Of a stretch of DNA of 64,000 nucleotides, positions 3,305-42,334 are shown piece by piece. The position numbers were made by a program, and so were the translations under genes. Position 1 is the stretch's first letter. Each line of letters begins with the position of its first letter. Source of the DNA: a virus. Below the pieces are notes generated by a model, which was not told where the DNA came from, made no database searches, and saw nothing but the letters and a program-made list of their open reading frames with translations. The stretch is taken from IMG/VR virus record IMGVR_UViG_3300046703_000100, positions 1 to 64,000 of that record, one strand, 5' to 3'.

Positions 3305-4426
3305 ATGATAATTATATTTCTTACAATAGGTATATTTGCTATATATCTTTATAAACAACAAGAAAAAAGACAAGCACAAAAACAAATAAGAATAGAAGTA
3401 TCTTCTTTAGTAGGCGAAGATGCTATTGTTCCGATGGAAAATGTTAATCCTATTATTGATGTAAAAATTAAAGACGGACAAGTAGATACAAGCAAAATAA
3501 TACCATATACAGGAACAGAAGTCAAATGCTTTCAATGGCAACCACAATCATTTTCGCAATATATAGGACAGGAGGAGGCGAAAGAACAAGCAAAAACTAT
3601 AATAAAGAAAATTAATAGAGGAATAAAATGTCATGTATTACTTTCTGCAATACAAGGGCATGGGAAAAGTTTATTTGTTAAATTACTTGCAAGAGATTTA
3701 AATGCTCACTATATAGAAAGAGTAGGGAAAACATTAGACTATGACACAATCATAGATGTCATAAATGAAATTAATACTTGTGTAGAACAGAAAGTTATTT
3801 TTTTCCTCGACGAGACGGACACCGCAGACATGAAAATTTTAAAAATAATGAATCCTATTTTACAAGATTTTAAATTAAATAATATAAAAATTAAACCATT
3901 TTGTTTTTGTGGGGCGACAATTAATAAAGATATTTTAATATCTAAAGTACCAGATTTTCTTGATAGAATACAGACACAAATTCAGTTACATCGTTATAAC
4001 GATGAAGAAATAAAAATAATCTTAAAACAATATGTTTCTCATTTATATCCCGAAGAAAAAATATCAGAAAATATTTATGATTTAATAGCAAAATCATGTA
4101 AATATAATCCAAGATTAAGTATTGGTATTACAGAAGATTATATAGTTAATCAAAATTTAATCAAAACATTTAGAGATAGACAAATTATAAAAGACGGATT
4201 AACAGATATTGATATTAAGATATTATCAGTATTATCTCTCGCCTCAAAACCGCTTGGTGCTAATGCTCTTTCACAAAAAATAGGGATTTCTCAAAATATT
4301 TATACGAGACAATACGAACCTTATTTAAGTGAATTTAATTACTTAGAAAGATGTCCTTCTCGTAAAATAACTAATAAAGGTCGAGAACTTTTAAGGAGTT
4401 TAGAAAATGAAAATTTATTATTGTAA
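3305..4426 (+). CDS. ruvB: RuvB-like AAA+ ATPase with N-terminal TM anchor
   Basis: P.SFSQYIGQE, Walker A QGHGKS, Walker B FFLDE, GAT, LDR, NPR, C-terminal GLTDID...YEPYL winged helix; residues 1-16 hydrophobic. Confidence 0.8.
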   Translation: MIIIFLTIGIFAIYLYKQQEKRQAQKQIRIEVSSLVGEDAIVPMENVNPIIDVKIKDGQVDTSKIIPYTGTEVKCFQWQPQSFSQYIGQEEAKEQAKTIIKKINRGIKCHVLLSAIQGHGKSLFVKLLARDLNAHYIERVGKTLDYDTIIDVINEINTCVEQKVIFFLDETDTADMKILKIMNPILQDFKLNNIKIKPFCFCGATINKDILISKVPDFLDRIQTQIQLHRYNDEEIKIILKQYVSHLYPEEKISENIYDLIAKSCKYNPRLSIGITEDYIVNQNLIKTFRDRQIIKDGLTDIDIKILSVLSLASKPLGANALSQKIGISQNIYTRQYEPYLSEFNYLERCPSRKITNKGRELLRSLENENLLL

Positions 4427-7690: not shown

Positions 7691-7846
7691 AATACATATA
7701 TACTTTAGAAATTAATAGAAGATTAGGTAGCTCTAATTGGTATTTGGACAGAATATATACTACAAAACAAGGTGCTATTAAAAAAGGAAAAGCAATTATA
7801 AAAAAATTTCCGACAAGCGGATTTGCAATTAAAAAATGGAGACTAT

Positions 7847-8998
7847 ATGAATGAAATATTTATAAATAAAAAAGGATTCGCAACTTTTGTTGGAGTATTA
7901 ATTCCTTTTGGCTCATATTATGAAGATTCAAAAGTTAAAGGTATTGCTCATTTCATTGAACATATGACTTTTAAAGCAACAAAATATCGTACAAAAAAAC
8001 AGATAAACGAATCTATTGAAGGGGTTGGAGGCGATATTAATGCCTACACTTGCGAAGAACAGACTTTTTATCATGCTATTGTTGCTAATAAATATAAAGA
8101 TATGGCAATCGATGTTATCAAAGATATAGCTCTTAACCCCTCTTTTCCTGCTAAAGAAATAGATAAAGAACGTGAAGTGATTATACAAGAACTTAAAATG
8201 TATGAAGATAATCCTTCTGCTATTGTAGGAGAGTTATATAATAAGATTTATTATCCAAAAGAGAGTGGTTTTCATCTTCCGGTAATAGGAACTAAAGAAA
8301 CTTTACATAAAATAAATAGAAAAGTATTAAACGAATATCATAAAAACAATTATCAAAATCCCACATTAATTGTCATAGGGGATGTTAAAAGCAAAACAAA
8401 TAAAGAAGCGATAATAACAGAAACTACATTAAATACTATATATAAACAAAAAAAAGATGAATATTTAGAAAAAAGAAAAATAGAACAAGCTCATATGATT
8501 ATAGGGCATGATGTTTATTTATCGCAGTATTCGAAAATAGATACAATATTACTATTAAATTTAGTTAAATTACTTTTAAATGGTATGAGTGGCAGGTTAT
8601 TTGGTAAAATAAGAGAAGAAAATAACTTAGTTTATGGAATACATTTTAATTACACAGTTTGGTCAGGTGGTATGATTACATGGTACGTCAATTTAGGACT
8701 AGATAAATCAAAAATCTATAAAGCTCGTAAATTAATTGAACAAGAAATGACAAAAAATGTCTTAAAAAAAGAACTAAAAGAAACAATTATAAAAACGATA
8801 GGAACTAACGCTTTAGAAAGCGAAGATATAAATACTATATCCGAGTTAATTGTAGATTGTACACGTAAACAGATAGATTATAGCCCTTTATATCATGATT
8901 TCGAGAAGAATCTCCGTCGAGTAAGTGGAAATTTGAACGAATTTATAAAAGCGTTGAATTTTAAAGAAAATTTTATGTGTGGTATCGTTCCAAAATAA
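7847..8998 (+). CDS. M16 family (pitrilysin-like) zinc peptidase
   Basis: GIAHFIEHMTFK (HxxEH), INAYT, KEREVIIQE, SGRLFGKIREENNLVY. Confidence 0.9.
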   Translation: MNEIFINKKGFATFVGVLIPFGSYYEDSKVKGIAHFIEHMTFKATKYRTKKQINESIEGVGGDINAYTCEEQTFYHAIVANKYKDMAIDVIKDIALNPSFPAKEIDKEREVIIQELKMYEDNPSAIVGELYNKIYYPKESGFHLPVIGTKETLHKINRKVLNEYHKNNYQNPTLIVIGDVKSKTNKEAIITETTLNTIYKQKKDEYLEKRKIEQAHMIIGHDVYLSQYSKIDTILLLNLVKLLLNGMSGRLFGKIREENNLVYGIHFNYTVWSGGMITWYVNLGLDKSKIYKARKLIEQEMTKNVLKKELKETIIKTIGTNALESEDINTISELIVDCTRKQIDYSPLYHDFEKNLRRVSGNLNEFIKALNFKENFMCGIVPK

Positions 8999-17144: not shown

Positions 17145-17475
17145 GATAATTAAGAGTATAATACTTATAAGTATCTTAATTTCTATATTTATAGTAGGTT
17201 ACTTTATGCCTTTCTGGAGACAAAAACCTATTCCAAAACCAATACCAATAGAAAATTTAAAACCACTTCCATATGGGTCAACATCTTGTATTAAGGATGG
17301 AATTCTTTTTACAAGTGTTAAAGCAATTCCTATTGCATGTATAACTAAAATAACAAGAATAGATTCAATGAGTGTAATGATAGAGTATAAAATTTCGAAT
17401 ATTCATAGAGGTTCTTTAATGATGAAATATTCGGAGTATAAAAGATTATTCGAGGTAAATGATGCCAAGACTTAA
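17137..17475 (+). CDS. Hypothetical single-TM protein
   Basis: Hydrophobic N-terminus, Pro-rich linker. Confidence 0.55.
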   Translation: MNKIIKSIILISILISIFIVGYFMPFWRQKPIPKPIPIENLKPLPYGSTSCIKDGILFTSVKAIPIACITKITRIDSMSVMIEYKISNIHRGSLMMKYSEYKRLFEVNDAKT

Positions 17476-18127
17476 AACAAAAAGAACATTAGAGAATACA
17501 AGATTTTCAATCGAAATTGAATGTGAATTTCCATCAGCCAAAGATAGTCAAAAATTAATTTCAAAACATAGAATTATTAGAGGTTGGGAATTAGATTATG
17601 ATGGGTCATTGGATAATGGAGCAGAGTATCGTCCGAAAAATCGGAATAAACTTTATTGGAACGAAGATTGTATAGACCAAATAAAGGAAATTATAGGACT
17701 TATTAAGGCACATAGAGGACATATTAAAGGCAGTACATGTGGGTTTCATATACATATAGATATGAGCAAGTTTACCAATAAAGAAATTTGTAATATTATA
17801 AAAGCATATATTAAACAACAAAATAAAATTTGTAAACAATTTGGCATGTTAAAATGTCGTTTAGACTATGCCCAAAAAATACCTACAAACACCATAAAAT
17901 ATTTAACAGAAAGAAATATTCAAAAAATTAAAGAAAATAATGATAATTGCCGAGATATATGTATTTATATGTCAGAAAGACATTTTGCTCTAAATCTTTT
18001 GGCTTTACAGCGACATGGAACACTCGAATGGAGATTATTTAACGGCTCAATACAAATTAATCGTATTAAAGGATATATTAAATTTGTTCTTAATTTCTGT
18101 TTAAATAACGCAAAAGGCGATAAATGA
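17462..18127 (+). CDS. Putative amidoligase (COOH-NH2 ligase family)
   Basis: FSIEIECE, YDGSL..GAEY, CGFHIHI, ALNL, TLEWRLF. Confidence 0.8.
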   Translation: MPRLKTKRTLENTRFSIEIECEFPSAKDSQKLISKHRIIRGWELDYDGSLDNGAEYRPKNRNKLYWNEDCIDQIKEIIGLIKAHRGHIKGSTCGFHIHIDMSKFTNKEICNIIKAYIKQQNKICKQFGMLKCRLDYAQKIPTNTIKYLTERNIQKIKENNDNCRDICIYMSERHFALNLLALQRHGTLEWRLFNGSIQINRIKGYIKFVLNFCLNNAKGDK

Positions 18128-24971: not shown

Positions 24972-26033
24972 ATGGGTCGCCATTTAAAAACATGCTCATG
25001 CGAAAGTTGTAAAGAACGAGAGTCTCAAGAAATTATGAAAGAACAAATAGAACCAAAGATTGAAACACCTAAAGAGAATACTGAGTTTAATCGTACTATG
25101 AAAGAACTCGAACGAAAGTATTCTATGAAACCTGCATCTGAAATAGTAATTGAACCAAAGATTAGAACAGGTGTGTACGCATTTGATTATGTGTTGTCAG
25201 GGGGTATAGCACAATGTGAAGGTGGATGCAAAATTGAACTTTATGGTAGAGAATCAAGCGGAAAAACAACTTTGGCTATGAAAGTTGTAGCCAAATTTCA
25301 GGAATTAGGAAAATCTTGTATCTGGATAAATGCCGAGAATAACCTTGATTCGCTTTGGGCAGAAATGAACGGCGTAGATATAAACAAACTTTTAGTTACC
25401 AAACCAGAAACTCTTGAAGGTGCAGGAGACATGATTATAGATTTAGTCGGAAAGGTTGATTTAATAGTAATAGATAGTATTTCTATGCTTATTCCAGCAG
25501 AAGAATTAGAAGGAGGACTTGAGGATAAATCGATGGCATCTCAAGCAAAAGTGCTTTCTCCTTTTTGTCGAAAACTTTTACAATATTACAAAGATGCTAA
25601 AACTACGATTATCTTTATTAATCAGATGCGAGAAAAAGTCGGTGTTATGTATGGCAATCCCGAAACCACAAGCGGAGGCAGGGCAATTCGTCATCTTTAC
25701 GATATTCGAGTAGAAGTTCGTAAAGGTAAACCAATTGAAGAAGGAACAGGAGAAAGTAAAGAAGTAATAGGACATGAAATTCAACTAAAATGTACAAAAA
25801 ACAAAAAAGGTAGAGCGTATTTACAAAGTATCGTAGATTTTTTCAGTATTGCCAAGTTCGACAATCGTAAATCTTTAATTTTTGCTGGTCTAAAATATTG
25901 CGTGATTAAACGAGAAGGAAACACATACACTTTCAAGAATATATCAGCAGTAGGACAAGATAAGTTTATAGATAAATTCGATGATAAATTACTTAAAGAA
26001 CTTGAAGACGAAATTTGGAAATTGGAAAAATAA
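24972..26033 (+). CDS. recA: RecA/UvsX recombinase
   Basis: ELYGRESSGKTT, IVIDS, FINQMREKVGVMYGNPETTSGGRA, KNK. Confidence 0.95.
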   Translation: MGRHLKTCSCESCKERESQEIMKEQIEPKIETPKENTEFNRTMKELERKYSMKPASEIVIEPKIRTGVYAFDYVLSGGIAQCEGGCKIELYGRESSGKTTLAMKVVAKFQELGKSCIWINAENNLDSLWAEMNGVDINKLLVTKPETLEGAGDMIIDLVGKVDLIVIDSISMLIPAEELEGGLEDKSMASQAKVLSPFCRKLLQYYKDAKTTIIFINQMREKVGVMYGNPETTSGGRAIRHLYDIRVEVRKGKPIEEGTGESKEVIGHEIQLKCTKNKKGRAYLQSIVDFFSIAKFDNRKSLIFAGLKYCVIKREGNTYTFKNISAVGQDKFIDKFDDKLLKELEDEIWKLEK

Positions 26034-26047
26034 CTAAAAGGAGATTT

Positions 26048-26293
26048 ATGGAAAATGTACCTGTTGTACCTCTTAAATTAAACGGTCTTCGAGTAGAAGT
26101 TCGTCCAGCAGACTCAAAAGATGCCCAATTGTTTCAATTAGAAAAGGCATTAAAAATATTTAAGAAAAAACTTGAAAAAGATGGCATCTTATTTGAGGTA
26201 CGTGAAAGAAGATATTATACCAAACCTTCCATTATAATAAGAACGGCATATAAGAAATTACATCCAAAAAAGAAAAGAGTGCAAGCTAAATAA
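26048..26293 (+). CDS. rpsU: Ribosomal protein bS21 homolog
   Basis: SD AAGGAG; RVEVR...LEKALKIFKKKLEKDGILFEVRERRYYTKPS matches the bS21 consensus. Confidence 0.8.
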   Translation: MENVPVVPLKLNGLRVEVRPADSKDAQLFQLEKALKIFKKKLEKDGILFEVRERRYYTKPSIIIRTAYKKLHPKKKRVQAK

Positions 26294-28516: not shown

Positions 28517-28656
28517 AAAAGAAGAATGTTTTTTTTATATGAGAGGTAAATGTGCCAGAGATGAAGAGAATCCTATTGCTATAATACCTTGTACAAAGAA
28601 ATGTAAGTTTTTTCTTTCATGGGAACATATGTTGAATGGTTTATCAGAAAAGGATT

Positions 28657-31600
28657 ATGATGCGAATTAATAACTTATTTTCAGAACATAAAGACCTTTA
28701 CGTATTTTATCGTGATGATTTATGTAATTTAAAGATTACAAAATTCACTGGTTTTTTCCCATATTTCTATGAACCAGACCCTTCTGGAAATTTTGAATCT
28801 TTTAAAGGTGAAAAACTTCGTAAAATAATTATATCAAATCCTTCAGAAATTCGAAAACAAGCAAGTACAAAAGCTTTTGAATCAGATATATTATTTGTAA
28901 AAAGATTTATGATAGATAAAGTAGATGTTATCGAACCTGCTCCTATTAAATACTGTTTCATAGATATTGAAACTCTTTCTCCCGAAATGCCAAATGTACA
29001 AGAAGCCAAATATCCAATTTCTTGTATTTCGATTTATAATTCATTATCTAAAGAAATTAAAACTTTCTATCTACCAGATTATGAATCAGAATACATGATG
29101 TTGGTTGCCTTTACAACATATATGAAAAAAGAAAAGTTTGATATATGGTTTTCATGGAATGTAAAGTTCGACTATAATTATTTATACAATCGCACTCTGT
29201 CGATATTCGATTTAGAAGGAATAAAAAACGCAGACTTGGCAGAATGTATAAGTCCAATAGATAAAAGTAGATATGGAGACGGAGAAGTAAAATATCCGGC
29301 AGGTACTTCGGTTGTAGATTATCTTGAATGGTTTAAAATAATTACATTAAAAAGAGAGAAAATGTATACTCTCGATTATATTGCACAGAAATTTTTAAAA
29401 GTTCCTCCAAAGGAAAAAGTAGATTTTAGTAAATTATCACCAAAATTAAAACAACATAATATTGATGATATAAAACTACTCGTAGGATTGGAAGAACTAA
29501 TGCATTTAGTATCCTATTACGACGAAATTAGACGAATTACACAAGTTGAGTGGGAAGATTTTATATATAATAGTAGAAGTATTGATATGCTTATTTTAAA
29601 AGAAGCTAAACGAAGAAATATAGTATTGCCAAATAGACCTTCTGGAGAAGGAGATGAAGAGATTTTCGAGGGAGCCTTTAGAGAGATATACGAGACTGGT
29701 CGTCTGGAGAACGTTGGTAAGGCAGATTTAGGTTGTTATTCAGAAGATACTGATATTTTAACTATAGAAGGATTTAAAAAATATAACGAATTAAAAATAG
29801 GAGAATCGGTAGCATCTTTTAATACAAAAATCAATAAAATCGAGTTTCAACCTATCCTTCATTTAAATATACAAAATGTAAAAAACCTACCTATGATAAA
29901 TCTGAAAAACTCTTATTCAACAGACCAACTTTTAACTTTAAATCATAAAGTTTTATTTAAAACTTCTTCAAAAAATCATAAAACGATAGAAAATACGACA
30001 AATGATTGGGAAATTTGTTACGCAAAAGATTTTCGAATTTCTCATTCTTTATTACCATTAACCGCTGAAATGAAAGATAAAGAGAATTATCCAATTTCTG
30101 ATGATATAATAAAAATACATGCTTGGATTATAACAGAGGGTTATGCATCAGGTAAAAATAAAGATATTTATCATATTAGTCAGAGCGAATCAATTAATCC
30201 TTTATTTTGTAAAGAAATTGATGAATCTTTCAAAAACCTAAATTGGAATGTAACTCGTTATGCAAGAATACGAAAAAATAATAGAATAGAAGTAGAATGG
30301 AATTTGAAATGGCTTTGGTCTACTTATATCGAGTTAGAAGAAAATTACAAAGCGATTCCTTTATGGATGCTCCAAAAATTATCAAAAAGACAATTAACCG
30401 TTTTATACGATACTTTAATGAAAGGGGATGGAGATAAAAAACGATATTGTTATTATGCTATTGACAAACTTGCTAAAGAAAGATTTCAATATTTATGTGC
30501 ATTACTTGGAAAAGCTTCTTATCAAAATAATAGAAAAGAAGTTTATTGTAAACCTAATAAATTTACAAGTCTTGAATCTGCAAATTTTAAAACTCAACAT
30601 AAAATTATAAATTATTCAGGTGTAGTATGGTGTCCTACAATTGCAAATGGATTTGTTTTAGTAAGAAGAAAAGGAAAGATATTTATTTCAGGAAATTCAG
30701 CCTATCCTTATGCTATTATAGAATTTTGTCTTGACCCTGCAAATGTAGTACAAGATAGCGGAGAAAATATTATACAGGTAGGAGACAATTATTTTAAACA
30801 AGATTCTAAAGCACTTATACCAACTATTATTAAAAAATTACTTGTTTTAAAAGCCACAATTAAAAAAGAATTATCAGAATGTTCAGTAGACGACCCAAAC
30901 CACAAAAATATTAAATTAAAATACGATGCTATAAAATCATTATGTAATACCGCATATGGAGTTACCGCTTTGAAGTTTTTTAGATTGTTTGATGTGCGTG
31001 TTGCATCGGCTACAACCTTCGTTGTACGTTCTTTACTACATTATATTAAAGATAAATTAGATGGTTCTGGACATCCGGTAGTTTATATAGATACAGATGG
31101 TGTATTTTATAAGAACCCTTCGACAGAAATAAATACAAAATTAAACGAATGGATTCAACAATGGGTAAAAGAAACTTTTAAAAAAGAAAGTGTGCAAATT
31201 TCGTTTGATTTTGAAGGTGTATACGAAAGTATTCTTTTATTGGCAAAATGTAGATACGTAGGAAGATTAAGAAAAAATAATGGAGAACTTGAAATAGAAA
31301 CAAAAGGTATTGAAGCAAAAAGAAAAGATTCTACCAAATATATGAGCAATTTTCAAAAGATATTAATAGATAAGATTTTAGACAACGAACCTAAAGAAAA
31401 AATATATGATTGGATAAAAGAAGAAATTAAAAATTTCCCAAAACAAAATATTATAGATATATCATTTCCTTGTAAAATGGCAAAATCAAAAATAGAATAT
31501 AAGTCAGTTCCCATCTTCTCCAGAGCTTTAGATAATACTCCGGAATTTAAGACAAGGGTAGGAGATAATTTCTACTATATTTATATGGAAGGTCTGGATG

Positions 31601-32145
31601 AAACAAAAAAAGATAAGGTTCTTGCTTTTGATGAATATAGATATGAACATATAAACAGAGAAGAAGTCGATTGGCAGAGGATGTTGGAAAGAAACATAGT
31701 TGCAAAAATAGACGTAATCTTTACAGCTCTAAAATGGAACTTAACGGACATTTACGTAGCTCCGCCGACTTCAAAGATATGTGATAAATGCCTAAAAGAC
31801 AAGTCGTTTTGTCGATTCCCATTAACCGGAAATACCTGCAAGGCGTGTATTACTCTCATAGAGAAGGCAAATAAGCCAAAGAGGGTCAAAAAGACCATAG
31901 AATCCTCTATTAGCGACACCCTGCCGAGCGATAAGGCGGATAAGGTAGGTCAGGATACCCCCGATTTGACAGGAAATACCCCTATTTTAACACAAAGTAC
32001 TGATAATAAAGGGGTTAAGATGGACAAAATCGATGACAAAGACCTCGTTACAGGCACTCCGGTCAAGTCCTTAAAAAAGAGGGGTAGACCACGAAAAATC
32101 AAGAAACCAGAAGACCTTAATTATGGGAAAGTAAAAAATGCATAG
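28657..32145 (+). CDS. Family B DNA polymerase with intein and extended C-terminal tail
   Basis: ExoI DIET, ExoII WNVKFDY, motif A DLG[intein]SAYP, motif B KSLCNTAYG, motif C YIDTDG, KGIE. Confidence 0.93.
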   Translation: MMRINNLFSEHKDLYVFYRDDLCNLKITKFTGFFPYFYEPDPSGNFESFKGEKLRKIIISNPSEIRKQASTKAFESDILFVKRFMIDKVDVIEPAPIKYCFIDIETLSPEMPNVQEAKYPISCISIYNSLSKEIKTFYLPDYESEYMMLVAFTTYMKKEKFDIWFSWNVKFDYNYLYNRTLSIFDLEGIKNADLAECISPIDKSRYGDGEVKYPAGTSVVDYLEWFKIITLKREKMYTLDYIAQKFLKVPPKEKVDFSKLSPKLKQHNIDDIKLLVGLEELMHLVSYYDEIRRITQVEWEDFIYNSRSIDMLILKEAKRRNIVLPNRPSGEGDEEIFEGAFREIYETGRLENVGKADLGCYSEDTDILTIEGFKKYNELKIGESVASFNTKINKIEFQPILHLNIQNVKNLPMINLKNSYSTDQLLTLNHKVLFKTSSKNHKTIENTTNDWEICYAKDFRISHSLLPLTAEMKDKENYPISDDIIKIHAWIITEGYASGKNKDIYHISQSESINPLFCKEIDESFKNLNWNVTRYARIRKNNRIEVEWNLKWLWSTYIELEENYKAIPLWMLQKLSKRQLTVLYDTLMKGDGDKKRYCYYAIDKLAKERFQYLCALLGKASYQNNRKEVYCKPNKFTSLESANFKTQHKIINYSGVVWCPTIANGFVLVRRKGKIFISGNSAYPYAIIEFCLDPANVVQDSGENIIQVGDNYFKQDSKALIPTIIKKLLVLKATIKKELSECSVDDPNHKNIKLKYDAIKSLCNTAYGVTALKFFRLFDVRVASATTFVVRSLLHYIKDKLDGSGHPVVYIDTDGVFYKNPSTEINTKLNEWIQQWVKETFKKESVQISFDFEGVYESILLLAKCRYVGRLRKNNGELEIETKGIEAKRKDSTKYMSNFQKILIDKILDNEPKEKIYDWIKEEIKNFPKQNIIDISFPCKMAKSKIEYKSVPIFSRALDNTPEFKTRVGDNFYYIYMEGLDETKKDKVLAFDEYRYEHINREEVDWQRMLERNIVAKIDVIFTALKWNLTDIYVAPPTSKICDKCLKDKSFCRFPLTGNTCKACITLIEKANKPKRVKKTIESSISDTLPSDKADKVGQDTPDLTGNTPILTQSTDNKGVKMDKIDDKDLVTGTPVKSLKKRGRPRKIKKPEDLNYGKVKNA
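29734..30696 (+). mobile_element. Intein with LAGLIDADG-like domain (321 aa)
   Basis: Starts CYSEDTDILT, TLNH, AWIITEG and LMKGDG, ends VWCPT...ISGN followed by Ser +1. Confidence 0.9.
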
Positions 32146-32632
32146 CGGAGATATAGAAATAGCATTAGCAAATCATTTAGGTACTAATTGTAATTTAATA
32201 GTTCCTAATATTTCTTATGGATTGGGTTTTCATTATGAATTAGATTTATTAGTAGTAACAAAAAGCGGATATGCGGATGAGATAGAAATTAAGATTTCTA
32301 AATCTGATTTAAAAGCAGATGCGAAGAAAGAACATGGTCATCACAGTGAGAAGATTAAAAGATTATATTTTGCAGTACCAAAATTTATGGAAGAATATGC
32401 TTTAAAGAATATTCCTAAAAGAGCAGGGTTGTTTATAATAAATGAAAAGAACGGTTTTATATATGTTACTTGTGTAAAAGTAGCAGACCGAAACAAAACA
32501 GCAAGAAAGTTAAACGAAAAAGAAATTAATCATCTTTATGAACTTGTGGCTTTAAGAATGTGGTCGTTAAAACGAGCATTATATAGTTTACAAAGAAGAA
32601 ATAAGTCCGAGAACGAAGCAGTAAAATTCTAA
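32138..32632 (+). CDS. PD-(D/E)XK nuclease (MmcB-like)
   Basis: ELDLL...EIEIKISKSDLKAD..K, LYFAVP, AGLF. Confidence 0.7.
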   Translation: MHSGDIEIALANHLGTNCNLIVPNISYGLGFHYELDLLVVTKSGYADEIEIKISKSDLKADAKKEHGHHSEKIKRLYFAVPKFMEEYALKNIPKRAGLFIINEKNGFIYVTCVKVADRNKTARKLNEKEINHLYELVALRMWSLKRALYSLQRRNKSENEAVKF

Positions 32633-32650
32633 AGAAAGGAGGATTATACC

Positions 32651-32872
32651 ATGATAAGGTCTGAACATGCGAAGGATGATTTCACAGTTCTGGAGACCAA
32701 AATTAAGGAAGGCAAGGTTGAAATAGCCGATGTAGCGAAGGTTGTTTTGACGCTCGGTAAGCTCCTTCTTTCTATTAGGTCAAATCAGATAGCTTCAATG
32801 AAAGCGTCTGGTGTAGAATTACAGAAGCCGAGAGTTACAACCGATGCGAAAGCACCGGAGAAAAAGGCGTAA
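32651..32872 (+). CDS. Small, probably highly expressed protein
   Basis: Strong SD AAGGAGG, higher GC at third codon positions, followed by a hairpin. Confidence 0.65.
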   Translation: MIRSEHAKDDFTVLETKIKEGKVEIADVAKVVLTLGKLLLSIRSNQIASMKASGVELQKPRVTTDAKAPEKKA

Positions 32873-32901
32873 GAAATTACATCAATCAGTGTAATAAAAA
32901 A

Positions 32902-32932
32902 GAGAGGGGTATATCCCCTCTCCCAAGTTTTT
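32902..32932 (+). terminator. Intrinsic terminator-like hairpin, possibly bidirectional
   Basis: GAGAGGGG-tatat-CCCCTCTC, A-run before and T-run shortly after. Confidence 0.7.
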
Positions 32933-32971
32933 TAAAGACATGTTAAGTAGGAAAAAGTAAGCACAAAATAC

Positions 32972-33000
32972 TTGTAATCTATAATCAAATATGTTATACT
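32972..33000 (+). promoter_or_regulatory. Sigma70-type promoter P5
   Basis: TTGTAA, 17 nt, TATACT with extended -10 TG; spacer nearly identical to P4. Confidence 0.75.
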
Positions 33001-33027
33001 TATAGTGTAGATAGAAAGAGAGATAAA

Positions 33028-33306
33028 ATGAAGAAGAATAAAGGCAGAAAATTTGAAGAGGAATGTCAGAAGACAATTAATAGTGGTGCTTTTTTTAAAG
33101 ACCACGATTTATCTACTGACCAATATTGTGTGGAATGTAAGTTTACCGAAAAAAAAGGATTTAAAATTACCACCGCAATTTTAGATAAATTATGGGAAGA
33201 TGCTTTTTCAGCAAATAAATTACCATTACTTTTGGTAGGAATTAAAGATAGAAATATACAATATAATTTACGAATAACAATTAACAAGGAGATAAAAAAT
33301 GGGTAA
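33028..33306 (+). CDS. Small PD-(D/E)XK nuclease (Hjc-like resolvase)
   Basis: GRKFEE, NSGA, D, VECK. Confidence 0.65.
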   Translation: MKKNKGRKFEEECQKTINSGAFFKDHDLSTDQYCVECKFTEKKGFKITTAILDKLWEDAFSANKLPLLLVGIKDRNIQYNLRITINKEIKNG

Positions 33307-34441
33307 AATACATTGGAATGGAGATAAAGTACAATTATTGCTTAATTATTTAAATCAAAGTTTAAAAGTAAGCGATATTGCTATAAAAATGAATGAAACA
33401 GATGATAGTATAGACCATGCTATTCGACGTTATCATCTTCGTAAAAATATTACAAATAATTCTGAAGAAAATGTATCTCCTACTTGTAAAATTAAGAAAA
33501 CTGATATAGATGAACTTTCTCGACAACTTGGTGAAAAAATGTATGAAGGTTATAAATCTTTAAAATTAATAGAACCAAAAGTATACGAAAGTAAAGGAAA
33601 GAGAGAAGAAGTATCTATATTAACATTAAGTGATTGTCATATAGGCACATATAACACTGTTTTTGATAAAAATTCAGGACAAAAATTAGTTACTTATAAC
33701 GAAAAAATTTTTGAACAAGAATTACAAACACTTCAAGATTCTATTATAGAAATTCATAATATATTAAGTCATTCTTATTCGTTAAAGAAATTGGTGATTT
33801 TTGTATTGGGAGATATTCTTACAAATGATAGAATATTTGAAGGACAACAATGGGAAATTGAAAAGACCGTAGGACTTCAATTATGGGATGGAGTAAATTA
33901 TTTTACGAAGTTTTTTAATAATCTTTTAAAAGTTTATGATACAATCGAAGTGGTCGGAGTAGTCGGAAATCATGGTAGAAGTCAACCACTTAAAGATTCA
34001 GACGATGAACCAGTTGAATCAAATTTCGAATATCATCTTTATCGTATTTGGCAAAAACAATTTGAAAACAGTAAAAGAATAAAAGTTATTGTTCCAAATA
34101 CTCGTAGATATATTTATAATGTAAATGGTTGGAATCATATGATTGAACACGGAGATGCTATTAAAGGTATGTCAGAACAAGCACAAATAAAACAGATTAA
34201 AGACCTATATGTAAATACAGGAGTATTTGATGTATTTCAGATGGGTCATGTGCATAGCATTAAAGAAATAGAAGTATCTGATAAAATAATCGCAAAAATA
34301 AATGGAGCATGGATAGAAAAAGATAATTACGCTTATCGTAAATTTAAGACATATTCTATTCCGAAACAATGGTTTTTTGGATGTTCAAAATCTCGACCTG
34401 AAACATGGTCGTATAAGTTGGATTTAAGGAAAACAAAATAA
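33299..34441 (+). CDS. Metallophosphoesterase with N-terminal HTH
   Basis: LSDCHIG, LGD, GNHGR, HGD, MGHVH. Confidence 0.85.
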   Translation: MGKIHWNGDKVQLLLNYLNQSLKVSDIAIKMNETDDSIDHAIRRYHLRKNITNNSEENVSPTCKIKKTDIDELSRQLGEKMYEGYKSLKLIEPKVYESKGKREEVSILTLSDCHIGTYNTVFDKNSGQKLVTYNEKIFEQELQTLQDSIIEIHNILSHSYSLKKLVIFVLGDILTNDRIFEGQQWEIEKTVGLQLWDGVNYFTKFFNNLLKVYDTIEVVGVVGNHGRSQPLKDSDDEPVESNFEYHLYRIWQKQFENSKRIKVIVPNTRRYIYNVNGWNHMIEHGDAIKGMSEQAQIKQIKDLYVNTGVFDVFQMGHVHSIKEIEVSDKIIAKINGAWIEKDNYAYRKFKTYSIPKQWFFGCSKSRPETWSYKLDLRKTK

Positions 34442-34574
34442 TGATACCAGATTACATTTATATTCTTTGTATTTATTGTCATAGTAAAATTTTACAAATC
34501 TCTAAAGAATTAGAAGGTATTGTTTGTGATTGTGGAAACCATATAAAAAATCCATATTATAAGGAGGAAAATAT

Positions 34575-34856
34575 ATGAAAGGTGTGAGATTCGAAAAAGT
34601 TGATGACAATACTCTTAGAGTTATAATAGAAAAACCAGATGATGTACAAATTGAGAAGTTAATAGAAAATAGAGCAAAAGTATTAGAAAGTATAGAAGCA
34701 GAACAGAAAAGTCTTGATACTCATGAAGCAGAAACACAACAAAGAGCAAGTATAGAAGCACAGAAAAAAATAATAGCAAACATCGACGAAATGCTTAAAT
34801 ATTGTAAGCTCAATGGTATTGTTCCTAAACCTAATGAAATCGCAAAGAAAGAATAA
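34575..34856 (+). CDS. Hypothetical coiled-coil protein
   Basis: SD AAGGAGG. Confidence 0.6.
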   Translation: MKGVRFEKVDDNTLRVIIEKPDDVQIEKLIENRAKVLESIEAEQKSLDTHEAETQQRASIEAQKKIIANIDEMLKYCKLNGIVPKPNEIAKKE

Positions 34857-35694
34857 TATGAATTTCTGGAAGTATGTTTGGGTATCTATAGATGCAAGTA
34901 ATCCTATTGATAGATTTTGGACTTTTATTGGTGGATTATTTGGTATGGGATTGATGATTTTAGCAATATTGAATTTATTTGGAGGATTTGGTTATATTTT
35001 AGGAATGTTAATAGGAGTAATTAAATGATAACTTTAATACTTAGTCTTAGTATATTATTTACATTGTTTATTGCTTATATGCTTATTAAAAAAGGATATT
35101 TAAAATGATATGGAAATTAAGAAAAGATGATGTTTTGAAATTAACAGGAGAAATCTGTCATTATAAAGTTACAGATATGTATGGATGTCATATAATTTTA
35201 GAAAATTGTTTAACCCATGAAAAGAAAGATATTTTTAATTCAGAACTTATCGATGGTACAGTAATAAGGTGAAAAGACTAATGAGCAGATATTATGAAGA
35301 CCATTCTGACCAATTATCAGAAAAATTTAAAGACCAATATGATTGCGATAAAGGCGATTTTGTATTTTTTGCTGTAATTGCAATTATTATTTTAATATTA
35401 TTTATTATAGGATAAATTTATGATATGTGAATTATGTAAAATAAAAGAAGCTACTATTCATTTGAAAAGTACGAGAGATTTACTTGATATATGCAATTCT
35501 TGTTTGGAAGACCTTCAGACAAGTCTTGGTTATTATATTGCAGGAGAGGAAGTCGTTAAAGAAGAATATGACCAAAGAACCCAAAATACATAAATGCAGA
35601 AAATGTAAAATGTTAGTATGTTGGCTTTGTGATTATTGTAAAAATATACAATGTTCTGAATGTTATTGCTTTGACTCTGAGAAAGAGAAATACG

Positions 35695-36576
35695 ATGTCT
35701 AAAACTTTAATTATAGGCGATTTACATATAAATGAAAGAGCAATAGAGGAAATAGAAACTATCTTTGACAAAGATATTTGTCCTATTGATGCAGACCGAT
35801 TAATACAATTGGGAGATTATTATGATTCTAATTTTCCAAGTGCTTTAGAATTAAAATTCGGTACAAACTTGGCAAAACGATTGTCTTCAAAATACAGAGA
35901 AGTTATTATTCTTTCTGGTACAGGAACACACGACCTATGCAGAGGATATTCGGTAATAGAATATTTACAGGAAGTAAAAGGTGTACATGCTAATAAAGGC
36001 GATTTTATAGAAGGTGTAGACTTATTTTGCGGTCATTTTATGTTGTACGAGTCCGCACTTGCTTTTGGGTCAGCAAACATGGGGATTGGTGATTTGTCGA
36101 AGTATGACAAAGTTTTTCTCGGACACCAACATTCGCCCCAAACGCTTGTAAAAAATAATATATATCATCTTGGTTCAGTAAGATATTGCAGTTTTAATGA
36201 AGTAAATGATAAGAAACACGTCGTCCTTCTGGAAGATAGTAAGATGTCATTTATAGCATTAAAACACTGTATTCCTATGTTAGATGTATCAGATGTGAGC
36301 CAATTGGAACAAATAGATGCCAGAACAAAGGTCAGAGTTATATTTAATTCTTTTGAAGATTATAAGAAGAACGCTTCTTATGTTAATAAATTAGGTAAGA
36401 AGTTTTTTCAGTTTAAACTGAAATTAAATTTTGAAGAATCTAAAATAATAATCAATCAATCTAATAAATTAGACACAAATATAAATAAAAGTAACATTAT
36501 AAAAGATTATATAACAAAGATAGAAGATAAAGATGTCAGGCAAATGCTCGAACAACAATTTAAGGAGAACATATAA
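35695..36576 (+). CDS. sbcD: SbcD/Mre11-like nuclease
   Basis: IIGDLH, LGD, GTHD, LGHQH, LGS; upstream of the SbcC-like gene. Confidence 0.8.
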   Translation: MSKTLIIGDLHINERAIEEIETIFDKDICPIDADRLIQLGDYYDSNFPSALELKFGTNLAKRLSSKYREVIILSGTGTHDLCRGYSVIEYLQEVKGVHANKGDFIEGVDLFCGHFMLYESALAFGSANMGIGDLSKYDKVFLGHQHSPQTLVKNNIYHLGSVRYCSFNEVNDKKHVVLLEDSKMSFIALKHCIPMLDVSDVSQLEQIDARTKVRVIFNSFEDYKKNASYVNKLGKKFFQFKLKLNFEESKIIINQSNKLDTNINKSNIIKDYITKIEDKDVRQMLEQQFKENI

Positions 36577-37164
36577 TGTATTGTTATTGTGGAAAAGAAA
36601 TAAAATCTATTACAAGTAATACAGTTGTTTGGCAAAGATGTGCTTACAATGATAAAGGTAAAATAATATATGCTATTTGTATGCATGGTATAGTTTGTAT
36701 TGATGAAAATAATGACATCCTAAATAAAATTGATATTTTAGAAGATTTAAAAATCTCTGTGCAAAATGAAATAGTAGGATATGAACCTTGTGACAGAGAG
36801 AAGGATAGAATTGATGCTTTAGAAAAAGCTATTGAAATATTAAAAGAGGAGATAAAACAATGACACTTGAATCTAAGATACGAAAAATATTAAAAGAAGG
36901 TTTAGTATCTCCAGTATTAAAACTTAAAGAAACACATCCTGACCATTATTTTACAGAAAAAGGATACGAAACTTTATTATCTAATACTATAGAAGAGATT
37001 ATGACATTATTAAGAAGGGGAGACTATGAATAACGATATTTATACATTTGGTAAATGCGAAGAATGTGGAGAAGATAAACCATTAAAAAATGATTTATGT
37101 AATAATTGTAATAATAAGAATTTTCCAGATATATTAAAAGATTTATTTAGAAAAAAGGACGACC

Positions 37165-38880
37165 ATGATTCTTAAAAAGATTTCACTCAAGAATTTTAAA
37201 TGCTTCGAAGATTGTTCTGTAGAATTTTCTAAAATTAATCTTATACAAGGAGCAATAGGTATTGGCAAATCTACTATTTTACAGGCACTAATCTTTGCTC
37301 TTTATGGTTATAGCGAAAGTACTCTCGCAGACCTGCCTACACGTGGAAAAGCAATTTCTTGTAAGATAACAGCGATTATAGAAGATTCAGGACATATTAT
37401 TGAGATATGTAGAGAATATCCTCTTAAATTGATAATCAAAGAGGACAGTAAGACTCTTAAAATGTCTACATCAGAAGGTAACTCTTATTTAATAGATAGA
37501 TTTGGTAGTAGACAGGATTTTTTCCAGTTTCGCATTGTTGATGCATATTCAAAGGAAACTAATTTACTCGAACAAGGTAATGTAGTATTTAAGAAGATTC
37601 TTTTTGCCGGAACGGATGAAAAATTTAATGAAGTTCGAAATAATCTTAATATAATCAAATTAGAACGAGAAAAACTTAATAAAGATTCTGTGGTTATTTA
37701 TAAACATCATCCTTCTGAAAAAAGATTAGAAATATTGAAAAAAGGATATAAAGAAATTAACGAACTTGTTATAAGTCATGAAAATACTGTAGGAGAATTA
37801 CAAAATAGTATAAATAAGAAAACTTCAAATTTTTCTAAAAACGAAAGTAGACAAGAATCTAATAAACAAACTATAGAACGACTTCAAAAACAAGTTAATA
37901 ATATAGATACAATCAAATCTTCTTATGACAGTAAATTATATCAATCAGAATCAAGACATACTGAAATACAAAGAACCGTTGGAGATTTAAATAAACAATT
38001 TATGGAAGTTATTAAAAATACTGAAACTATTAAAAAAGATAAAAAATGTTATGTGTGTCAACAATCTATATTAGATACTTCAAATATTGTTATAGAACAA
38101 AAATTAAAAGAAGAAAAACTTCAAAAACAATTTGAAAATATAAAAAACGAAGATATTGAACTTTGTAGTCAGATACCTATTTTAAAGGAAAATATTTTAG
38201 AAGAAAGAAAAAAGAAAATAGAAGAATATAAAATAGAAATAGAGGGATTAAATCAAGAGATTATATCTTTGTCAGAAGAAAATTCTAATATTAAAACTGA
38301 AATAGATATGGACAAAGAAATTATAACACAGTATCTTAATGATAGAGATAATTATAGGAAAGAAAAAGAAAGTATTCAATCATTGGTTATTAAATTAGAA
38401 GGACGATTGCAACAAAAAGAGTATATTTATACAGAACAAGATGTCATTATCGTTAAAAAAGCTTTAACCGAACTCGACAATCTTTCAAGTATTTATTTAT
38501 GTGAAACAGTAAGAAGTTTAGAACCAATTATAAATTCAGTCTTGGAAAAGATAGGTTTCCAAATTACTTTTGACGTGGACATTAAAGGCAAATTTAATAT
38601 TCTTTTAAGTAAAGATGATATACAATATAAATATACCGATTTAAGTTGTGGTCAACGCCTTATTTTACAAATAGCATTAAAACTATCGTTGCTCCTTCAA
38701 CAGAGCAAAACAGGTATAATTTTGAGCGATGAAGGGTTGAGTGCCCTTGAGAATAACAACCTTGAGGATATTATCAATCTATTTAAAGAATTAAATTTTC
38801 AATTAGTCTTCGTCTTGCACAGAGCAAGTATAGAAGACCCCGAAATTAATGTAATTAAATTAGGAGGAAATGATGAGTAA
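37165..38880 (+). CDS. sbcC: SbcC/Rad50-like ABC ATPase
   Basis: LKNFK, Walker A GAIGIGKS, coiled coil with CYVC hook, LSCGQ signature, ILSDE, VLH. Confidence 0.88.
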   Translation: MILKKISLKNFKCFEDCSVEFSKINLIQGAIGIGKSTILQALIFALYGYSESTLADLPTRGKAISCKITAIIEDSGHIIEICREYPLKLIIKEDSKTLKMSTSEGNSYLIDRFGSRQDFFQFRIVDAYSKETNLLEQGNVVFKKILFAGTDEKFNEVRNNLNIIKLEREKLNKDSVVIYKHHPSEKRLEILKKGYKEINELVISHENTVGELQNSINKKTSNFSKNESRQESNKQTIERLQKQVNNIDTIKSSYDSKLYQSESRHTEIQRTVGDLNKQFMEVIKNTETIKKDKKCYVCQQSILDTSNIVIEQKLKEEKLQKQFENIKNEDIELCSQIPILKENILEERKKKIEEYKIEIEGLNQEIISLSEENSNIKTEIDMDKEIITQYLNDRDNYRKEKESIQSLVIKLEGRLQQKEYIYTEQDVIIVKKALTELDNLSSIYLCETVRSLEPIINSVLEKIGFQITFDVDIKGKFNILLSKDDIQYKYTDLSCGQRLILQIALKLSLLLQQSKTGIILSDEGLSALENNNLEDIINLFKELNFQLVFVLHRASIEDPEINVIKLGGNDE

Positions 38881-39262
38881 ATGTAAGCAGTGTAAAAAGA
38901 ATAAAAACATTCTCTGGTTTTTTGATGAGATATATCGACAAGAATTCATGGTTATATTCGCTCCTAATCATCGAAAATTTGCAGAACTTCTTAAAAAAGA
39001 AACTGGATTTGTTGTAGAACCTTGTGAAGAAGAATGTGTTGCTGGACAATTTAATGAATTAAAAAGTAAACATGGAGATTTAGCAGTAATTTGGGCAAGC
39101 GATAAAAACTTGGTATTAATGCATGAGACCTTCCATGCTTGTTCCTGCATTTTACAACAAAGAGATATTTGGCTTAATCCTGAAACAGAAGAAAGTTATT
39201 CATATTATTATTGTTATATAATGCGTAGTATACAAGAACGACTTAGAGAGGGAGGAAAATAA
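38870..39262 (+). CDS. Putative minimal zincin metallopeptidase
   Basis: LMHETFHA (HExxH) and downstream EE. Confidence 0.5.
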   Translation: MMSKCKQCKKNKNILWFFDEIYRQEFMVIFAPNHRKFAELLKKETGFVVEPCEEECVAGQFNELKSKHGDLAVIWASDKNLVLMHETFHACSCILQQRDIWLNPETEESYSYYYCYIMRSIQERLREGGK

Positions 39263-39263
39263 C

Positions 39264-39542
39264 ATGATGGACGCTCTCTTTGTAATTGGTTTTTTATGTT
39301 TACTTTTAGTACCTTTTATTGTTTATAAACTTTGGTGGTGGGTTGGTACTCTTGCTATCATAGCAATTATATTAGGGTCTGGCGAAGGAATAAGTGCTTT
39401 AATTACTGGACGAACTTTAAGTCAAGAATTTTGGAAACTCTCGCAAGAAAATCAAATGGGTGCAATGATAATTACTATTTGTATTACGATTGCTTGGATA
39501 TTTTTACTTTGTCATCTCAATTGGAAAATAATGACTAAATAA
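39264..39542 (+). CDS. Small multi-TM membrane protein
   Basis: Three hydrophobic segments; SD GGAGG. Confidence 0.6.
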   Translation: MMDALFVIGFLCLLLVPFIVYKLWWWVGTLAIIAIILGSGEGISALITGRTLSQEFWKLSQENQMGAMIITICITIAWIFLLCHLNWKIMTK

Positions 39543-39553
39543 AGGAGAAATCA

Positions 39554-39877
39554 ATGGACAAAAACGAAGACCTTGTTACAGGAACGCCTGTTACTAAAAC
39601 TCCCTTAGCATTAAGAGCAGTGTTGGCTGTTCCTGAATATTGGAAAGAAATTTTTATATATTTCCAACGATTAATTATGGTTATTTTAACTGTCGCTGTA
39701 GTATTAAGTCTTTATAAAGCTTCAGAAGAAATTAAAGCCCTAAGAGTACAAACAACTCGTATTGCAAATATAGCTGAAAATGGTTGTAGAATAGCAGAAG
39801 AAACACGAACAGAAATTTATCGACAGATAGAAGAGATTCAAAGAGATGGTATTAAATTACATTTTCGTATTTTTTAA
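39554..39877 (+). CDS. Single-TM plus coiled-coil protein with N-terminal DLVTGTPV motif
   Basis: SD AAGGAG; TM LIMVILTVAVVLSLY. Confidence 0.65.
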   Translation: MDKNEDLVTGTPVTKTPLALRAVLAVPEYWKEIFIYFQRLIMVILTVAVVLSLYKASEEIKALRVQTTRIANIAENGCRIAEETRTEIYRQIEEIQRDGIKLHFRIF

Positions 39878-40549: not shown

Positions 40550-42334
40550 ATGACAAATAATCTTGAATATTGCGAACATTGTAATAAAGAAACTTCATTT
40601 CAATATATCCAACATATTAAAGGATATACGATTAAAAAATGTTTAGATTGTTATACTATTACTAAAATAGAATCTAATTCAGAAGAGATTGATTCTAATA
40701 AAATTTTATTAAGTATAATAATTCCTTCTTATAAAAGACCTGAATTATTAAAATGGGGATTGTATTCTTTAAGTCAACAGATAACTACTTTTCCATTTGA
40801 AATAATAGTTTTAAATGACGGTATTAAGGACGAGACTGAAAATATATGTAACTCTTATCAAGATAAATTAAATATTCGATATATTTATATTGGACATCGT
40901 AATGAAAAAGAAGACCATTGGAGAATTCCAGGATATGCTATAAATATTGGAGTTAAACAATCATTAGGAGAAAATATAATTTTGTCATGTCCTGAAATTT
41001 TTATCATGGATAATTGTTTACAAGAAATTATAAATTTACTTTCTAAAAATAAAAAATTATTGATAAATACTAACGGATTTCATGAAAAAAGAGATAATTA
41101 TATTAATCAATTAAAAACAACTGGAAAAATAAATTTAGATTTATCTACTATGACATCTTTAGATACTGAATTACCTTTTTTTATAGCAATGAATAAAGAA
41201 GAATTTATTAATATTGGAGGATACGATGAAGATTTTATTGGTTATTGTTGGGATGATAATGATATAATAAGTAGATTAAAATTAAATAAATGCACTTTTC
41301 TAAAACTTAATAAAACAATTATTCATTTATGGCATGATAAATTAAATTATAACAATCCTAAAATTATGGACATGTGGCGTTATAATAAGAATTTATACGA
41401 TACTCGAAGAAATATGATTATAAGAAATGAAAGTAAAGAATGGGGAGTATTAAAAGTTCCTCCGCCAGAAGATATTTGGGTTTTAAAGAATATACCAAAA
41501 ATCGCTCATTTTTATTGGGGTCATCCTTATATTTCTTATTTAAATTATTTATCAATTTATACTTTTCAAAAATATAATCCAGATTGGGATATTAGACTTT
41601 ATTATCCTAAAAAAGCATTTTTAGAACAAACATGGAAAGACCCAAATCAAAAATTTACTTTTAAAGGTAAAGATTATTGTTCTGAACTCAAAAAACTTCC
41701 AATAAAATTTATAGAATTTGATATGAAAAGTATTGAAATAAGTAACGATATTGCAGAAGTATTTAAATCTGAATATTTAAAAAATTATCTATTAAGTACA
41801 ATAGGCGGTTTATGGTCAGATATGGATATTCTATATTTTAAACCAATGAATAAAATTAACGTTAATATAAAATATAATGAAGATATTACAAATGTAGTAT
41901 CAATTGATACTAAATATACTAATAAATGGTTTCATTCAATAGGCTTTTTATTATCCTCTCCTAATAACGAATATCATGATTTCTTTTTTAAAGAAGGAAA
42001 AAAACAATTTGACCCTACAAGTTATCAAAGTCTTGGAGCAGTATTATTTAATAAGATTTGTCCAAGTATAATATCTATTCATGCTAAATTTCCTAATACT
42101 AAAGCAGTTAATATGTCTTATGATACCGTTTATGCTTATGGTTATATTAATAGACGATGGGGTTTAATATATAATAGTAATAATACTGTATATTATACAA
42201 ATGAATCAATTGGTTGTCATTGGTATGGAGGATGGAAAGAAGCGGAAAAATATATAAACGAAGTAAATGATACTAATTATAAAAAATATAATAATGTATT
42301 ATGTAAAACAATTAGGATGGCATTAAATGACTAA
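40550..42334 (+). CDS. Two-domain glycosyltransferase (Zn ribbon, GT2, DxD/GT32-like)
   Basis: SIIIPSYKR, VLNDG, GGYDEDFIGY..DDND; second domain IPKIAHFYW, GGLWSDMD. Confidence 0.85.
   Translation: MTNNLEYCEHCNKETSFQYIQHIKGYTIKKCLDCYTITKIESNSEEIDSNKILLSIIIPSYKRPELLKWGLYSLSQQITTFPFEIIVLNDGIKDETENICNSYQDKLNIRYIYIGHRNEKEDHWRIPGYAINIGVKQSLGENIILSCPEIFIMDNCLQEIINLLSKNKKLLINTNGFHEKRDNYINQLKTTGKINLDLSTMTSLDTELPFFIAMNKEEFINIGGYDEDFIGYCWDDNDIISRLKLNKCTFLKLNKTIIHLWHDKLNYNNPKIMDMWRYNKNLYDTRRNMIIRNESKEWGVLKVPPPEDIWVLKNIPKIAHFYWGHPYISYLNYLSIYTFQKYNPDWDIRLYYPKKAFLEQTWKDPNQKFTFKGKDYCSELKKLPIKFIEFDMKSIEISNDIAEVFKSEYLKNYLLSTIGGLWSDMDILYFKPMNKINVNIKYNEDITNVVSIDTKYTNKWFHSIGFLLSSPNNEYHDFFFKEGKKQFDPTSYQSLGAVLFNKICPSIISIHAKFPNTKAVNMSYDTVYAYGYINRRWGLIYNSNNTVYYTNESIGCHWYGGWKEAEKYINEVNDTNYKKYNNVLCKTIRMALND

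Follow-up and report, generated by a model that had tools for sequence, protein, structure and literature searches.

A conserved octapeptide shared by the DNA polymerase tail and a single-pass membrane protein of an uncultured virus: a candidate docking motif

Replisomes recruit changing sets of partners through shared docking peptides, examples of which are the clamp-binding motifs, the tip of SSB and the C-termini of T4 gp43, gp33 and gp55. The bacterial β-clamp motif (QL[SD]LF or QLxLxL) and the SSB tip (DDDIPF) are likewise docking peptides situated in the disordered termini of replication proteins. To our knowledge, the shared docking peptides described from phages all connect soluble proteins of DNA transactions. 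In T4 the gp43 polymerase, gp33 and gp55 carry highly similar C-terminal epitopes for clamp binding, which can be interchanged and are borne on divergent flexible linkers (PMC2988020), while in phi29 two membrane proteins, p1 and p16.7, serve as anchors of the replication machinery (PMC4974454). Here we describe an octapeptide, DLVTGTPV, which is present both in the tail of a family-B DNA polymerase and at the N-terminus of a small single-pass membrane protein encoded by the IMG/VR virus record IMGVR_UViG_3300046703_000100. The window analyzed here comprises the first 64 kb of this 91,572-bp record, which has direct terminal repeats and a G+C content of 30%. The best reading of the comparisons below is that the core of the peptide, [DN]-L-V-T-G-T-P-[VI], represents an undescribed short linear motif on two otherwise unrelated proteins, and we propose that it may be a docking peptide for a partner common to both.

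The shared octapeptide and its conservation in two protein families

A six-frame search of the complete genome finds DLVTGTPV at exactly two sites, 32041-32064 and 39569-39592, both on the plus strand. The first lies in an open reading frame (ORF) of 1169 residues (28636-32145, +), which reads MDKIDDKDLVTGTPV at 32020-32064 and is clearly recognized as a family-B DNA polymerase (Pfam DNA_pol_B, E=7.4e-29, 101 bits against a cut-off of 23). The second lies in an ORF of 107 residues (39554-39877, +), which begins with MDKNEDLVTGTPV at 39554-39592, with the core occupying residues 6-13. The product of this ORF is predicted to contain a single transmembrane helix at residues 33-54 (39650-39715, +; Kyte-Doolittle mean over 19 residues up to 2.39). 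A strong AAGGAG ribosome-binding site, combined with an in-frame stop codon just upstream, indicates that its N-terminus is as read. An earlier sequence-only reading of the window had reported the peptide in these two places, and had labeled the two carriers as a polymerase and a membrane protein; the identity and the labels are confirmed by the present analysis. Its list of codon differences is also accurate: five of the eight codons differ between the two copies, in each case at the third position and synonymously (ctc/ctt, ggc/gga, act/acg, ccg/cct, gtc/gtt).

Orthologs of both proteins were used to establish whether the peptide is conserved. Five polymerase orthologs (P0012-P0016, recovered also as DNA in L011-L014), which are 841-846 residues long and 75-89% identical to the window's polymerase, all keep LVTGTPVK. 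In these proteins the motif is embedded in a tail block of the form DK-I-[DN]-DK-[DN]-LVTGTPV-K-[ST]-[LV]-[KR]-KRGRPKK...PE[DN]LN[FY]G, ahead of which a 55-residue linker diverges freely. In the polymerase the motif is thus internal, being located 26 residues from the C-terminal end. Among eight orthologs of the membrane protein (47-52% identity) L-V-T-G-T-P, corresponding to residues L7 to P12, is invariant within an N-terminal region that otherwise varies in both length and sequence. Most of these orthologs have longer N-termini than the window's protein, and the motif sits approximately 20-25 residues before the transmembrane helix. Further members of the family were recovered by a profile search over 1.8 billion representatives, with the motif being present in, among others, P0021, P0027 and P0034; in all, about a dozen membrane orthologs keep [DN]LVTGTP[VI]. 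At the first position both families accept either D or N, and LVTGTP is otherwise fixed in the motif-bearing orthologs. An acidic run before the motif and a Lys within two to four residues after it are also common to both contexts. In a profile-profile comparison of the two families (hhalign) only 12 columns align, and these are centered around the motif (P=1e-4), indicating that the polymerase and the membrane protein share nothing beyond it. In the AlphaFold model of the membrane protein, residues 1-17 are devoid of secondary structure (pLDDT 52-58) and are followed by one long helix spanning residues 28-106 (pLDDT >90). The peptide hence displays the usual traits of a short linear motif, namely a conserved island of 3-10 residues between variable flanks, a segment predicted to be disordered, gain and loss among relatives, and carriers that are unrelated to each other.

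We found no record of this motif in Pfam, PHROG, the PDB or the literature, with a literature search on LVTGTP returning nothing. This agrees with the sequence-only reading, which had called it undescribed; a lack of conservation among orthologs, which that reading had named as grounds for refuting it, is contradicted by both families. A word-index search for longer proteins carrying the motif yielded 27 candidates, none of them at E<=10. Two resembling segments were evaluated and rejected as additional copies. DLTGNTPIL in the polymerase linker (31963-31989, +) is a loose look-alike that is found in three of the five orthologs and gives way to unrelated residues in L013 and L014. DLKTGKPD matches at only five of the eight positions, a degree of similarity expected in 58% of shuffled proteomes; it sits in the 14-residue tandem repeats of a 1058-residue protease/scaffold protein encoded outside the window (genome 73901-77077, -).

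It is the conservation in the orthologs of both proteins that marks the motif as non-random. When the residues of the proteome, taken as the 160 ORFs of the full genome, were shuffled 2000 times, at least one exact 8-mer common to two proteins emerged in 7.8% of the shuffles, and in the real proteome the remaining shared 8-mers are all between obvious paralogs. The figure from the shuffles might be taken to favor a chance coincidence of two independently conserved peptides. Such a coincidence would, however, need to have hit two conserved islands which additionally have the same substitution tolerance and are jointly lost in one contig (L016, see below), and we consider it extremely improbable.

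The sequence-only reading had further included the preceding 'MDK' in the motif, and this part does not stand. The Met of the polymerase copy is replaced by Val, Val, Asp and Glu in four orthologs (codons GTG, GTG, GAT and GAG in L011-L014, respectively). The resemblance of the prefixes is therefore partly coincidental, and conservation at this position extends neither to the residue nor to an internal start. The latter point bears on another explanation, in which translation would also begin internally, from the ATG at 32020, and yield a free 41-residue peptide with the motif and the adjacent AT-hook, such that the two 'MDK' N-termini would be equivalent gene starts. A GGGG located 5 nucleotides upstream of the ATG and the GTG found at the same codon in L011 and L012 are compatible with this. 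Nevertheless, the GAT in L013 and the GAG in L014 show that the start is not conserved, and the apparent ribosome-binding site encodes a conserved NK[GE]VK, which is also present in motif-less orthologs. We accordingly give this explanation very little credence.

The invariance of the motif in both families, while its flanks vary, and the lack of evidence for an RNA element support a constraint acting on the peptide and not on the DNA. This is in line with the preference of the sequence-only reading for selection on the peptide over a recent DNA duplication. Among the polymerase orthologs the codons of the motif show ordinary synonymous variation, close to the gene average, and a DNA-level constraint on them was accordingly rejected. 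Between these orthologs the codons differ at 29-40% of identical residues, to be compared with the five of eight for the two copies in this genome. The polymerase tail (31786-32086, +) is nevertheless distinctive, with a G+C fraction at third codon positions (GC3) of ~0.45-0.55 and 43% G+C, as against ~0.15 and 28% elsewhere in the gene. Rare codons, CTC and CCG among them, occur in it, whereas those of the membrane copy are the common ones ending in A or T. The tail also has the highest synonymous conservation of the gene in five orthologs, with 12-column windows reaching 0.75-0.83 single-codon columns versus a gene mean of 0.35. An RNA element under this GC-rich segment was considered and discarded, as there is no Rfam match and the covariation term of the consensus fold is unfavorable. 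The composition of the tail would fit either a long separation of the two copies or a foreign origin of the tail.

Modular contexts of the motif

The tail of the polymerase starts with a zinc-ribbon-like CxxC...CxxC element (CDKC...CKAC; 31780-31848, +), whose cysteines are invariant in the five orthologs. Beyond the variable linker the motif is followed directly by an AT-hook, KRGRPRK (32077-32097, +), which is conserved as KRGRP[KR]K with a G-R-P core and Lys/Arg flanks, and then by a second conserved element near the C-terminus, PE[DN]LN[FY]G (here PEDLNYG; 32107-32127, +), kept in all five orthologs. The AT-hook accounts for the sole similarity of the tail in the PDB, where it aligns to the KKRGRPRK segment of a chain. 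Of the conserved tail elements, PE[DN]LN[FY]G would be a better candidate for a clamp contact than the motif itself. The distal block is missing in P0017, P0019 and G001 (a related genome described below), and in P0018 the AT-hook is kept and only the motif is missing. In L018 (4480-4560) the polymerase ends at DKTDDKR, precisely where the block starts elsewhere, with the ATG of the next gene inside the last polymerase codons; a recombination boundary probably coincides here with the beginning of the distal block. P0017 (794 residues) instead has a tail that ends in ...GLSDDLPF, which resembles the SSB tip. The polymerase tails of this clade thus seem to swap docking peptides.

In the membrane protein family the core consists of the transmembrane helix with the signature FFEW.KL.QR.IMVILT, in which QR.IMVILT is nearly invariant, and a C-terminal helix ending in DGIKLHFRIW, whereas the N-terminal extension is optional. 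The motif occurs alone in the window's protein, P0005-P0007 and P0027, and after a CxxC...CxxC ribbon in P0004, P0008-P0010 and P0021. It precedes the ribbon in P0034/P0047, a distant member (E=9e-5) with a different domain order that still keeps EDLVTGTP. In P0022 (DLVTGMSIT), P0023, P0025 and P0028 it is degenerate or lost. The presence of many members without the N-terminal extension suggests that the motif is accessory to the core function of the family and not a part of it. The zinc ribbons on the relatives point to a cytoplasmic location of the N-terminus and the motif, i.e. the compartment of the polymerase. The family as a whole received no assignment in Pfam, PHROG or the ESM Atlas, with DUF948, FtsL_2 and DivIC emerging only below threshold. 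Directly upstream of the membrane gene is a gene for a 92-residue protein with three hydrophobic segments (39264-39542, +), which has a holin-like size and shape and no counterpart in G001; its vicinity yielded no endolysin.

The recurrent association with zinc ribbons raises the possibility that the two copies are relics of module shuffling, wherein a zinc ribbon, linker and motif were copied between genes, and each copy was kept for a separate local reason without a shared partner. Consistent with this, the motif is paired with a CxxC...CxxC ribbon in both contexts, the distal block of the polymerase is detachable in the manner just described, and the GC3 of the tail (~0.5 versus ~0.15) would fit a foreign origin. 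However, the zinc ribbons of the two families do not align with each other in hhalign, leaving ribbon plus motif as a single homologous module unsupported, and the window's membrane protein and P0005-P0007 have the motif without any ribbon. Moreover, identical invariant residues, a common tolerance of D and N, and joint loss in L016 would not be expected if the two copies were constrained independently. We regard shuffling without a shared function as a rather unlikely explanation.

A different possibility is suggested by the composition of the motif, which contains two Thr residues and a Thr-Pro: the motif could be a substrate site at which a phage or host enzyme modifies or cuts both proteins, with T-G-T-P serving, for instance, a Ser/Thr kinase, an O-glycosyltransferase or a peptidase. 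Shortly downstream of the membrane gene, at 40550, begins a glycosylation island that has no counterpart in the motif-less G001, and the phage encodes an M16 (insulinase-type) peptidase (7823-8998, +), an amidoligase (17459-18127, +) and a transglutaminase-like protein. Yet the M16 peptidase and the amidoligase are both kept in G001, and no kinase was detected among the ORFs scanned, the general PHROGs and Pfam scans having taken in ~55 ORFs of the genome. We also know of no precedent for a glycosylated cytoplasmic DNA polymerase. A substrate site hence appears decidedly unlikely, though one and the same peptide could serve both an enzyme and docking.

Two additional features of the polymerase locus are peculiar to this genome. 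The polymerase contains a 321-residue insert (29734-30696, +), extending from Cys367 to Asn687 and followed by Ser, which was delineated by alignment with the intein-less orthologs and is absent in eight of eight of them. It interrupts the conserved ADxxSAYPY, the orthologs reading ADVSSAYPY where the window's protein reads ADLG, then the insert (C...N), then SAYPY. Its match to the Hint domain (E=0.0025, 17.9 bits) is below the Pfam cut-off of 29.7, and its boundary residues fit an intein; it is probably an intein with a middle part of the size of a homing endonuclease. Immediately downstream, an MmcB-like (phrog_2776) nuclease-like gene (32138-32632, +) has a start that overlaps the polymerase stop. 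In G001, L016 and L011-L014 the polymerase is instead directly followed by a gene for a 73-residue protein, and the MmcB-like gene looks like a recent insertion.

Joint presence and loss across genomes

Both genes could be scored in three genomes, namely this one, L016 and G001. In the genome under study the polymerase and the membrane protein both bear the motif. L016, a 21-kb metagenome contig, encodes a polymerase that is 53-60% identical (tblastn) and has a ribbon-like element, but continues into another distal tail that contains neither the motif nor the AT-hook. Its membrane ortholog reads MTSLITNSIPKNVKVPF as opposed to DLVTGTPVTEKKPF in the others, with SLITNSIP at the place of the motif. 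G001 (89.8 kb, 96% complete) encodes a polymerase of 771 residues that is 63% identical and lacks both the ribbon and the tail. A profile search of G001 recovered no member of the membrane protein family, nor is there one at the syntenic position, which is flanked by the homologs of SbcC and of a 162-residue gene product; no LVTGTP-coding pattern occurs anywhere in this genome. Two copies with a shared function would be expected to occur together and to be lost together, as they do here.

All genes of the replication module that could be compared are kept in the motif-less G001, namely those for the primase-helicase, RuvC, the UvsX-like recombinase, SbcCD and the conserved 149-residue product encoded before the polymerase, in addition to the genes for the M16 peptidase, the amidoligase and a RuvB-like ATPase located elsewhere in the genome. 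A 92-residue ORF (26015-26293, +) matching a phage family of ribosomal protein S21 (phrog_21469, E=2e-8) is also kept in G001, as well as in L016, L013 and L015. Searches of INPHARED phages by blastn and tblastn gave no match. Exact-pattern and protein scans of IMG/VR for the membrane protein were likewise negative. The genome contigs of GTDB contained no relative of the polymerase or of the membrane protein, and thus offered no prophage or host clue.

A possible common partner and comparison with known systems

We propose that the polymerase and the membrane protein may both dock, through the motif, on the same site of one partner, which could be of phage or host origin. On the side of the polymerase the motif would act from within a detachable distal block, comprising the acidic DK-rich run, the motif, the AT-hook and PE[DN]LN[FY]G, that is placed after the zinc ribbon and the variable linker. 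Through docking, the two proteins would either be assembled at the membrane or compete for the partner. That such a common partner exists is plausible and would fit the co-variation across the three genomes. With binding, partner and consequence all inferred from comparative evidence, we judge the proposal to have about equal chances of proving right and wrong.

Several observations weigh against it. The exact identity of the two 8-mers is by itself only suggestive, as ~8% of such proteomes reach it by chance. The co-variation comes from a small sample of three genomes, and none of the phage genes compared tracks the motif as the gene of a partner would. The AlphaFold model of the polymerase tail has a mean pLDDT of 55, with the motif at ~57-64 and devoid of secondary structure, but it is based on a five-sequence alignment, and the low confidence may reflect this rather than disorder. 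Scans of ~55 ORFs against PHROGs or Pfam did not reveal a sliding clamp. Finally, the motif conforms to no known docking consensus, be it that of clamps of the T4 or bacterial type, of SSB or of others.

A further and rather doubtful extension of the proposal is a tether code, in which the phage would link its DNA polymerase with a bitopic, FtsL-like protein of the membrane through one hub protein or by direct competition for it, thereby anchoring replication at the envelope or signaling to it, e.g. in timing a division block or lysis. An AAA+ protein encoded in the window (3305-4426, +), which has a 43%-identical homolog in G001, begins with a 16-residue hydrophobic segment, MIIIFLTIGIFAIYLY, that is a possible membrane anchor. 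It matches a clamp-loader PHROG (E=1e-11), but in Pfam it is recognized by RuvB_N and RuvB_C. A RuvB-like ATPase with such an N-terminal anchor would fit the tether scheme.

If the proposal is correct, the gain and loss of the motif together on a polymerase tail and a membrane protein would point to replication and the envelope being linked, physically or by regulation, in an uncultured virus lineage. The motif also provides an eight-residue handle on the partner, which could be sought with it as a peptide bait. Even if no such partner exists, the motif would still be a clear-cut example of a conserved peptide island that moves between phage proteins unrelated to each other. The finding generates a hypothesis rather than settling one.

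The known systems resemble this one in different respects. Like the β-clamp-binding motif and the SSB tip, the motif is a short peptide in termini predicted to be disordered, and one related polymerase, P0017, has the SSB-like ending ...SDDLPF. In contrast to those peptides, DLVTGTPV has no Gln and lacks the two hydrophobic or aromatic anchors. The phi29 proteins offer a parallel for the second carrier, in that they too are small phage membrane proteins, with a transmembrane helix and a coiled coil, that have been proposed to hold replication proteins at the membrane. There is, however, no sequence similarity, and p1 and p16.7 bind the terminal protein and single-stranded DNA through folded domains, and not through a motif shared with the polymerase; furthermore, the present phage has a primase-helicase and is not protein-primed. 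In its layout the membrane protein also recalls the bitopic division proteins FtsL, DivIC and FtsB, in which a short N-terminal tail in the cytoplasm is followed by a single transmembrane helix and a helix outside the cytoplasm, and one member of its cluster is labeled FtsL in its source. Membership in the FtsL/DivIC families is nevertheless not supported, the Pfam matches being below threshold (FtsL_2 E=0.033, DivIC E=0.089) and restricted to one or two of 20 members.

The T4 system is comparable in its overall organization, for there as well a single short peptide is found on the polymerase tail and on unrelated proteins of the same phage, is carried on a divergent flexible linker, and serves a common hub. 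The T4 epitope differs in being hydrophobic/acidic and in occupying the extreme C-terminus, whereas the present motif is rich in Thr, Gly and Pro and is either internal or N-terminal. The second carrier in T4 is a transcription factor, while here it is a membrane protein. The principle of shared docking peptides on replisome proteins is thus a known one, and the unusual part of the present case is the membrane protein as the second carrier.

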